Made by a program: the position numbers and the translations under genes | Shown: in pieces, positions 14,148 to 14,953 of the stretch | How the letters are laid out: the number at the start of each line of letters is the position of its first letter | Position numbering within the stretch: position 1 is the first letter of the stretch | Assembly: GCA_035261165.1 (NCBI GenBank) | Contig: DATFUE010000165.1 | Span: 1-28,684, forward strand | Source of the DNA: Myxococcota bacterium | GTDB taxonomy: Bacteria > Myxococcota_A > UBA9160 > SZUA-336 | Length of the DNA: 28,684 nt | Direction: 5' to 3' | The notes under the pieces: model-generated | What the model was told of the DNA's origin: nothing | Database searches by the model: none | What the model saw: only the letters and a program-made list of their open reading frames with translations

Positions 14148-14953
14148 TTCCTGAGCGTGGGTAGGGTGCCCACGCGATCATCGGACCCGCGCTCGAGCTC
14201 CCACAGCTTCGCGTACTTCATGAACACGTAGTACGCGGTCGCCGCGGACACGACGAAGCCGGCCATGCCGTCGCGGAACCCCTGGCGCAGCACGTAGCCC
14301 TTGAAGAAGCGCGCGATCGGGCGCAGCAGGAGATCCGCGAGGCGGAAGCGCACGCCGGCCTCCTGCATCGAGCCCGCCATGCGCGCCGAGAACCGGTCGG
14401 TCGTCTGGATGTGCTCGGAGAGGCTGCGGTAGTTCCAGTGCAGCAGGCGCCCGGAGAGGCGCTCCACCCGGCCGTCGAGCTCGACCCGGTCGTGCGGATC
14501 CATGCCCGCCCAGCGGCCGCGCGAGCGGCGAAACACGCGCAGCTGCCAGTCGGGATACCACTCGCCGTGGTCGTGCCAGACGCCGAGGTAGTGAGTCACT
14601 CGGTCGAGCTCGTAGCCGGACACCCTGTCGTCGACGCGCGCGAGCGCGGCCTGCAGCGACTCGCGCAGCTCCGGCGAGAGCGCCTCGTCCGCGTCGAGGC
14701 AGATCACCCAGTCGTGCTTGGCGCGCTCCAGCGCGAAGTTCTTCTGCTTCACATAGCCCAGGAACGGCTGCTCGATCGTGTGCTCGGTGTAGCGGCGCGC
14801 GACGTCTCGGGTCCCGTCCGTGGAGCCGGAGTCGACGACCACGAGCTCGTCGCAGAAGGCCAGTGACTCGAGACAGCGCCCGATGCGGTCCGCCTCGTTC
14901 AGGCAGATCACCACCCCCGAGATCGGGGGCGCCTTCGGCCGGTCCGCGCTCAA
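14144..14953 (-). CDS. Glycosyltransferase family 2, WaaE/KdtX/LgtF-like LPS core glucosyltransferase
   Basis: ISGVVICLNEA, VVVDSGSTDGT, QKNFAL, CLDADE and YPDWQLRVF motifs. Confidence 0.85.
   Translation of the reverse strand: MSADRPKAPPISGVVICLNEADRIGRCLESLAFCDELVVVDSGSTDGTRDVARRYTEHTIEQPFLGYVKQKNFALERAKHDWVICLDADEALSPELRESLQAALARVDDRVSGYELDRVTHYLGVWHDHGEWYPDWQLRVFRRSRGRWAGMDPHDRVELDGRVERLSGRLLHWNYRSLSEHIQTTDRFSARMAGSMQEAGVRFRLADLLLRPIARFFKGYVLRQGFRDGMAGFVVSAATAYYVFMKYAKLWELERGSDDRVGTLPTLRK

Follow-up and report, generated by a model that had tools for sequence, protein, structure and literature searches.

Most known cases of hyper-abundant short motifs come from cyanobacteria (HIP1) and from two competent proteobacterial families, whose motifs are the DNA uptake sequences (DUS) and uptake signal sequences (USS); after 30 years, the origin of such motifs is still disputed. 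Two further short words over-represented across whole chromosomes, Chi and KOPS, are asymmetric, oriented with replication, and modestly enriched, while the repair enzyme Vsr converts T:G mismatches to C:G, that is, it acts toward G/C and on one mismatch type. HIP1 is enriched 15-300-fold and conserved, and two proposals exist for its origin, selection and methylation-dependent mismatch repair (PMC5861425, PMC4390886). A function as a binding site of a chromosomal protein was suggested for HIP1 by Xu et al. (2018; PMC5861425), and according to Elhai (2015; PMC4390886) an abundant palindrome is accompanied by a methyltransferase specific for it or for its core. Uptake sequences build up inside genes, where the peptides encoded by them become twice as frequent (PMC2817400). 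In this study, we analyzed a family of short words, typified by GAGTCAC and AGTSACT (S, C or G), in a contig of G000, the metagenome-assembled genome (MAG) of an uncultured soil member of the Myxococcota, with 3.63 Mb, 685 contigs, and 70.5% GC. The window, that is, the stretch of DNA analyzed, is this whole contig of 28.7 kb, which is ordinary chromosome. No description of GAGTCAC/AGTSACT-family words as a bacterial motif was found in the searchable literature. We show that these words arise from a lineage-specific fixation bias on the DNA itself, which fixes and keeps a family of 7-9-bp sequences against strong codon bias. This bias works in coding and non-coding DNA alike, overriding a codon bias of 91% GC at third codon positions (GC3).

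The genes of the window include those encoding RelA/SpoT, lipopolysaccharide glycosyltransferases, LptF/G, and ABC exporters. The initial annotation had singled out one 11-mer, GTGAGTCACTC, as the word from which all enriched heptamers could be cut; it occurs once in the window, at 14591-14601, and does hold GTGAGTC, GAGTCAC, and GTCACTC. On the minus strand it reads CGA GTG ACT CAC (R V T H) in a gene encoding a GT2 glycosyltransferase (14144-14953), and therefore places two rare codons side by side. The full block at this site, AGTGAGTCACTC (14590-14601, minus-strand CGA GTG ACT CAC TAC, RVTHY), is an overlap of AGTGAGT, GTGAGTC, GAGTCAC, AGTCACT, and GTCACTC. Two 9-mers located earlier were found again, each with a further copy. 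The palindromic GAGTGACTC lies at 12505-12513, 13572-13580, and 18335-18343, in each case as GAG TCA CTC (ESL) of a minus-strand gene, and also on the opposite strand at 14593; GTGAGTCAC lies at 11609, at the start of GTGAGTCACT (11609-11618, intergenic according to the gene calls), and again at 14591. When 100 dinucleotide-preserving shuffles served as the null, GAGTCAC/GTGACTC was counted 23 times (4.8 +/- 2.2 expected), GTGAGTC/GACTCAC 13 times (4.3 +/- 1.9 expected), and AGTSACT 10 times (1.3 +/- 1.1 expected), counts reached by 0/100 shuffles. GTCACTC/GAGTGAC has 16 copies in the window and GTCAGTC, previously noted as missing, has 0. After merging, the window holds 48 motif blocks, 45 of them coding, and each coding block uses ACT, TCA, AGT, CGA, GGA, or GGT.

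The same words are abundant throughout G000. Relative to base composition, AGTSACT (1497 sites) is enriched 9.9-fold, GAGTCAC (2301 sites) 6.4-fold, GAGTGAC (1471 sites) 4.1-fold, and GACTCAC (1427 sites) 4.0-fold, whereas GTCAGTC is unenriched (226 sites, 0.63 of expectation). A stricter null, in which synonymous codons were shuffled within each gene so that the amino-acid sequence and per-gene codon usage were kept (3773 genes making up 91.6% of the genome, GC3 0.91), gave enrichments of 9.6-fold for AGTSACT, 8.0-fold for GAGTCAC, 7.7-fold for ACTCACT, 7.0-fold for GACTCAC, and 4.6-fold for GAGTGAC, and of 13-15-fold for the 9-mers. All motif words merged amount to 4368 sites, or 1.2 per kb, on both strands; they occur on every contig with a between-contig spread no greater than Poisson, and their spacing is slightly more even than random (coefficient of variation 0.91 vs 0.97 +/- 0.014). 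Inside genes the motif is found in every stop-free frame; its saturation is 43-51% whatever the GC3 class, stays at 44-50% along genes, and reaches up to 96% at permissive sites. The density in non-coding DNA is equal to or above that in coding DNA (for AGTSACT, 0.61 vs 0.39 per kb), and translation therefore cannot be the cause.

The cost in codon usage is visible at synonymous positions. At four-fold sites of G000, A/T makes up 6.8% overall and 55-96% where it completes the motif; likewise, TCA accounts for 4.2% of serine codons overall vs 67.6% in GAG-Ser-CTC, and ACT for 6.1% of threonine codons overall vs 57.9% after GTG and before C. The proposal that different rare codons complete the motif in different frames is borne out by this concentration and by the individual readings, all of which hold against the gene calls: GTG ACT CAG (GTGACTC, 9374-9380), GCG AGT CAC (GAGTCAC, 9442-9448), GAG TCA CAC (GAGTCAC, 10622-10628), CGA CTC ACC (GACTCAC, 25001-25007), GGA GTC ACC (GAGTCAC, 8124-8130 and 24410-24416), and, on the minus strand in RelA, GGT GAC TCG (GAGTCAC, 15311-15317). 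A comparison of rare codons inside and outside the motif showed that the third base falls within a motif window in 58% of TCA, 38% of ACT, 32% of AGT, 9.5% of CGA, 6.5% of GGA, and 3.5% of GGT codons, vs 0.96% of all codons. Orthologs from relatives with few motif sites have ordinary G/C-ending synonyms at these positions. In RelA, motif-rich relatives carry GGA GTC ACC, GGT GAC TCG, AGT GAC T, and CTG ACT CAC where motif-poor relatives carry GGC, GGG, AGC, and ACG, with identical amino acids. In the window, the RelA gene holds AGTCACTC at 15258-15265 (GCG AGT GAC TGC; AGC in poor relatives), GTGACTC at 15275-15281 (GGA GTC ACC; GGC in poor relatives), the GAGTCAC site at 15311 given above (GGC or GGG in poor relatives), and GTGAGTC at 16790-16796 (GGA CTC ACG; GGG in poor relatives).

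A degenerate family of 7-9-bp words makes up the motif, and the 11-mer is a chance overlap of its members. In a maximal-order Markov comparison, the 11-mer has 22 genomic copies vs 20.4 expected from its sub-words (ratio 1.08), which rules it out as a functional unit, and words of at least 7 bases generally lie near 1.0 (GAGTCAC 1.01, the 9-mer palindrome 1.00). The exceptions are AGTSACT (1.52) and TGASTCA (0.64). The latter value rules out GTGASTCAC/TGASTCA as a second palindrome, its outer T and A not being driven (0.13 and 0.21, in rich and poor genomes alike). The family cores are GAGTCAC/GTGACTC, the palindrome AGTSACT (extended to GAGTSACTC), GACTCAC/GTGAGTC, and ACTCACT/AGTGAGT, and they follow one rule: A and T alternate every second base, and the intervening bases run G...G and then C...C. 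Steps with C 5' and G 3' of the A/T (CAG, CTG) are unenriched, and because of this GTCAGTC, ACTGA, and TCAGT are unenriched as well.

Information extends beyond a 5-bp core. At four-fold sites, N in G[N]GTC followed by C or G is A in 5% of cases, and this share rises to 52% in G[N]GTCA, 67% in G[N]GTCAC, 89% in G[N]GTCACT, and 96% in G[N]CTCACT; the stepwise climb with context indicates that the site spans about 7-9 bp and that its positions are cumulative. Of the degenerate 9-11-bp site suggested by the initial annotation, the degeneracy and the information beyond 5 bp were thus upheld, whereas the 11-mer is not the site and information ends at about 7-9 bp. Genomes rich and poor in the motif differ only at the A/T positions on the same G/C scaffold; for GAGTCAC, the rich vs poor shares are 0.58 vs 0.19 (A2), 0.57 vs 0.26 (T4), and 0.48 vs 0.17 (A6). 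General clustering of A/T at 2-bp spacing was ruled out, since patterns of weak (W, A/T) and strong (S, G/C) bases alone move P(W) only over 5%-13%. Among the 32 WSWSW pentamers, only TGACT/AGTCA, TGAGT/ACTCA, and TCACT/AGTGA are strongly raised (1.5-2.2-fold), the rest lying at 0.6-1.2. A GANTC (CcrM-type) site was likewise rejected as the whole story, G[N]GTC without AC after it being at baseline.

The trait is confined to one genus and is graded within it. The 12 genus genomes, named rich or poor by their high or low AGTSACT count, comprise five rich (G000, G001, G002, G006, G011), one intermediate (G009), and six poor ones (G003, G004, G005, G007, G008, G010), G005 being the sister species to the rich clade plus G009; the relatives were recovered in several projects on soil and groundwater, and their assemblies are partly short-read and partly long-read, with G005 among the long-read MAGs. 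With the reversed word as the control, AGTSACT has 1497-2485 sites in the rich genomes (control 177-303), 782 in G009 (control 101), and 164-228 in the six poor species, the sister included (control 47-89). In 19 genomes from other genera it is at or near the control level. The poor species remain 2.3-4.9-fold above the control (AGTCACT, for instance, has 24 copies vs 6 expected in the poor sister), and since they keep an excess that the other genera do not have, the trait is graded rather than simply on or off. Family members co-vary across genomes, G006 being at the level of G000, G009 at about 38%, and G005 at baseline; an alternative hyper-abundant word was sought in the poor sister genome and none was found. 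When 13 syntenic proteins were concatenated (4857 columns), the resulting tree joined G009 and the five rich genomes in a single clade with 100% support, with poor G005 as its sister and the remaining poor species outside. We read this as one origin, or a sharp strengthening, inside the genus, followed by partial decay in G009, which may have lost or weakened the driver.

Motif sites are also kept between species. G000 and G006 share 91% amino-acid identity and have 425 and 435 motif windows, respectively, in 215 kb, 304 of them at the same position. Between these two genomes, synonymous (four-fold) A/T is kept in 82% of cases in the motif vs 33% outside it, synonymous G/C being kept in 77%; against poor G005, A/T retention is 11% both inside and outside the motif. 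Identical 7-mer windows between related genomes make up 71.5% of motif windows vs 48% of all windows. At half of 64 aligned motif positions the tree requires two or more changes, which implies recurrent gain, loss, or both. The bias reaches into proteins as well: the amino acid differs from that of G005 in 28.4% of motif-overlapping codons vs 19.1% elsewhere (n=853, about 7 standard errors), and peptides encoded by the motif outnumber those of the G005 orthologs about 1.4-fold (ES[LPHQR] 90 vs 63, VT[LPHQR] 97 vs 69; control peptides 0.92-1.33).

We consider it likely that the family is an iterated motif of the HIP1 or uptake-sequence kind in a new phylum, produced by a sequence-reading protein; this degree of confidence covers the umbrella statement and does not extend to the repair sub-mechanism. 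On a G.G.C.C scaffold, the bias replaces G or C by the particular A or T needed for a full motif, irrespective of the kind of substitution involved, and a protein reading about 7-9 bp probably causes it, as proposed for cyanobacterial HIP1 and DNA uptake sequences. As the sub-mechanism we tentatively rank first a short-patch mismatch correction toward the motif, that is, biased repair of the Vsr/HIP type. It is possible, although we would not presume it, that the fixation bias is of a previously undescribed type that evolved within one genus, in which a protein, neither Vsr nor dependent on 5-methylcytosine and possibly linked to an orphan N6-adenine methyltransferase, corrects any mismatch toward the motif.

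The only DNA methyltransferase found in the rich genomes is indeed such an orphan, a beta-class N6-adenine enzyme that carries a DPPF motif and has M.RsrI and CcrM as distant relatives; in G000 it is encoded on contig 367 (about 2954-3808, locus L051) between a PEP-CTERM-type glycosyltransferase gene and cofG/cofH. The residue just before its TQKP motif is glycine in five of the six rich or intermediate genomes (alanine in rich G001) and serine in all poor ones. Other candidates were rejected. Lineage-specific methyltransferases or nucleases were sought with PF01555, PF00145, PF03852, PF02384, PF02086, PF07669, and PF09491 in the 12 genus genomes, and none tracks the trait; an S-adenosylmethionine (SAM)-methyltransferase-like protein on G000 contig 197 has no ortholog in rich G011 and has homologs in poor genomes. 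A synteny scan for G000 genes missing in place in G005 or G009 (about 400 kb each, about 10% of the genome) revealed only metabolic and regulatory genes and no DNA-related insert. A C5 methyltransferase gene adjoins a Vsr gene on contig 20 of G010 (about 59845-61303), a pair present only in that one poor species; this is a Dcm/Vsr pair of the ordinary kind and has nothing to do with the motif.

Several points count against a sequence-reading protein as the driver. No driver was found among the families and genome parts examined, and the orphan methyltransferase is present in 12/12 genus genomes and also, with an identity of 62-68%, in the family's seven other genera, all of which lack the motif. 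C5 methyltransferase, Vsr, Type I/IIG, Dam-type, Eco57I-type, and AlwI/PleI-type families were not found in the rich genomes; the accompanying cognate methyltransferase reported for HIP palindromes was thus not found here, which leaves the repair sub-mechanism without an enzyme behind it. All compared genomes are MAGs, and G000 is 75% complete, so that gene absence there is weak evidence; a home-made finder supplied its gene calls. A strong equilibrium bias would likewise produce retention between species, which alone is no proof of selection.

Among the alternatives to biased repair, we rank second, as a rather doubtful possibility, a drive of the uptake-sequence type, in which the competence machinery prefers DNA carrying the motif and recombination spreads motif-creating alleles. 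Such a drive would fit the density of about 1.2 sites per kb on both strands with slightly more even than random spacing, the lineage-specific 'dialect', the mosaic presence among species, and the excess of amino-acid change at motif codons with about 1.4-fold more motif-encoding tripeptides, as reported for USS by Findlay and Redfield (PMC2817400). ComEC was found in all 11 other genus genomes and not in the incomplete G000 assembly, but it is equally present in rich and poor genomes and does not discriminate between them. No match to a ComP_DUS-type receptor (PF16732) was found in the 12 genus genomes, in a search without a positive control (the control genomes gave no match either). A short degenerate motif would also exclude foreign DNA poorly, the palindromic core is unlike known DUS/USS, and known uptake sequences sit in preferred-codon frames (PMC2817400), whereas the motif described here forces rare codons.

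Direct selection on each site, ranked third, is in our view unlikely. It would require every site to be bound by an abundant chromosomal protein, for example one acting in nucleoid organization, segregation, or self-recognition. The far higher retention of motif sites than of other synonymous A/T between rich species, the even density across the genome, and a palindromic core suited to a dimeric binder (AGTSACT being the word 1.52-fold above its sub-words) are in line with it, but about 4,400 sites would each have to beat a codon-position bias of about 5.5 natural-log units by our own calculation, and both the saturation of up to 96% and the amino-acid changes that create sites are better explained by a drive than by a small advantage of each site. 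A Chi site of the RecBCD type is unlikely too, since RecC (PF04257) was not found in five genomes (it was detected in the E. coli control) and the core is unoriented.

A context-dependent mutation hotspot, in which a single process such as deamination, oxidative damage, or polymerase error makes the A/T, is very improbable; the initial annotation, too, had argued against a single-context hotspot. Mutation is universally biased from G/C toward A/T, and the rich clade could owe the trait to a lost repair gene, but the base gained is set by the motif and not by a mutation type, which excludes a single-context hotspot. At GNGTCAC, N is C 0.44, G 0.27, A 0.19, and T 0.10 in the sister genome, and C 0.14, G 0.18, A 0.58, and T 0.10 in G000, so that the main flux is from C to A; at AGNGACT, by contrast, C falls from 0.71 to 0.25 and T rises from 0.19 to 0.57, and C thus goes to T. 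In 220 kb of orthologs aligned with those of the sister genome, four substitution classes feed the motif: G>A (134), C>T (100), G>T (77), and C>A (68). In addition, about 7 matched bases are needed to move the share of A from 5% without context to 67-89% with full context, and A/T is retained far better in the motif (82%) than at other synonymous sites (33%). Hardly credible, finally, are codon-pair or translational selection and a sequencing or assembly artifact, which could draw on the rare codons always involved and on the fact that all rich genomes are fragmented short-read MAGs, but which face the equal or higher non-coding enrichment, the use of both strands and all frames, a saturation no lower in genes with the strongest codon bias, the sharing of the trait by five independent species assemblies from different projects, and, ruling out the sequencing platform, the presence of short-read MAGs in the poor set too (G003, G007, G008) and changes that leave amino acids unaltered (RelA orthologs).

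The remaining motif sites of the window, where coding, show the same use of rare codons. In the first part of the window, GTCACTC lies at 563-569 (GTC ACT CGA), GACTCAC at 872-878 (GAC TCA CCC), and GAGTCAC at 1036-1042 (ACG AGT CAC). These are followed, in minus-strand genes, by GTGAGTC at 1354-1360 (GGG ACT CAC), 4042-4048 (CGA CTC ACA), and 4378-4384 (CGA CTC ACC), GAGTCAC at 2658-2664 (GTG ACT CGC), 3099-3105 (GTG ACT CCC), and 4685-4691 (GTG ACT CGC), and GAGTGAC at 3630-3636 (CTG TCA CTC). Two family members abut in GACTCACGAGTGAC (8484-8497, CGA CTC ACG AGT GAC), which has two rare codons within five. Further along are GTGACTC at 8876-8882 (GTG ACT CAG), AGTGAGTC at 9976-9983 (a gene start or intergenic edge), GACTCACT at 10730-10737 (GAC TCA CTG), GACTCAC at 10922-10928 (GAC TCA CCC), and GTCACTC at 11108-11114 (GTC ACT CCC). 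Minus-strand genes then carry AGTGAGT at 11121-11127 (GCA CTC ACT), GAGTCAC at 11943-11949 (GTG ACT CAT), GAGTGACT at 12712-12719 (AAG TCA CTC), GTGAGTC at 13857-13863 (GCG ACT CAC), GAGTGAC at 14014-14020 (GGT CAC TCG), AGTCACTC at 14120-14127 (ACG AGT GAC TGG), and AGTGACTC at 14862-14869 (GAG TCA CTG). Beyond RelA, GAGTCAC at 18808-18814 is intergenic or at a gene edge, and minus-strand genes hold GTGACTC at 21413-21419 (GCG AGT CAC) and 22614-22620 (TCG AGT CAC), AGTGACTC at 22652-22659 (GCG AGT CAC TGG), GAGTGAC at 21835-21841 (GTC ACT CTG), 25400-25406 (GGT CAC TCG), and 26194-26200 (GCG TCA CTC), and AGTGAGT at 26315-26321 (AAC TCA CTG). ACTCACT lies at 23535-23541 (CAC TCA CTG) and GTCACTC at 24264-24270 (GTG TCA CTC).

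Between 11112 and 12858, the window contains three small genes (PNPOx-like, SDR, and GNAT) that have no counterpart at the syntenic position of G009; the SDR and GNAT genes have none in G005 either. This stretch still holds five motif blocks in 1.75 kb. Apart from the motif, some words are depleted: CTCAG/CTGAG occurs in G000 at 0.46 of the codon-preserving expectation, and AAGCTT, AGCGCT, CAGCTG, ACCGGT, and CACGTG are depleted in rich and poor genomes (400-kb samples of G005, G006, and G009 included). The depletion of CTCAG/CTGAG and of the AAGCTT-type palindromes looks like restriction avoidance, despite the almost complete lack of methyltransferase genes found.

The phenomenon known from cyanobacteria and competent proteobacteria is thus seen in the Myxococcota, a new phylum. 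The motif runs against a GC3 bias of 91%, so a rare codon marks each site, which makes for an unusually clean signal. In these genomes, most TCA codons (58%) and roughly one in three ACT and AGT codons are by-products of the motif and not signs of foreign DNA or translational regulation, and predictors of codon usage and horizontal transfer would misread them. One genus presents six species in which the motif is weak, five in which it is strong, and one in which it is half-decayed, with none in other genera, and a comparison of gene presence and absence could identify the driver. If a fixation-bias protein is indeed responsible, the genus would offer a natural system for the mechanism behind HIP-like motifs, with absent, weak, strong, and decaying stages.

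Compared with the described systems, the family most resembles HIP1 and its alternate palindromes (GCGATCGC) in having a short palindromic core over-represented about 10-fold or more, in lying both between genes and inside them in all frames through synonymous positions, and in being conserved between related genomes, with a presence and strength that depend on lineage and are lost or decayed in some. It differs from HIP1 in phylum and sequence, alternating A/T in a 70% GC genome and forcing rare codons whereas HIP1 is GC-rich, in being a degenerate family with non-palindromic members (GACTCAC(T) and ACTCACT, 7-7.7-fold) rather than one strict palindrome, in an enrichment of 7-15-fold vs 15-300-fold, and in that no cognate or lineage-specific methyltransferase was found here. 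With the DUS of Neisseriaceae and the USS of Pasteurellaceae (PMC2817400, PMC3630211) it shares about one site per kb on both strands, thousands of copies, lineage variants, accumulation within genes with an effect on peptides, and spacing slightly more even than random. In contrast to them, it is 7-9 rather than 9-12 bp long, degenerate, partly palindromic, and placed in non-preferred codons, and no ComP-like receptor was found for it in the search that had no positive control. Very-short-patch repair by Dcm/Vsr is similar in that a context-specific repair bias shifts oligonucleotide abundance genome-wide, but the conversion described here is toward A/T and from any base, and neither Vsr nor a C5 methyltransferase was found in the rich genomes. 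Like Chi and KOPS, finally, the motif is a short word over-represented across the whole chromosome, and it differs from both in its palindromic core and in a setting where RecC was not found.

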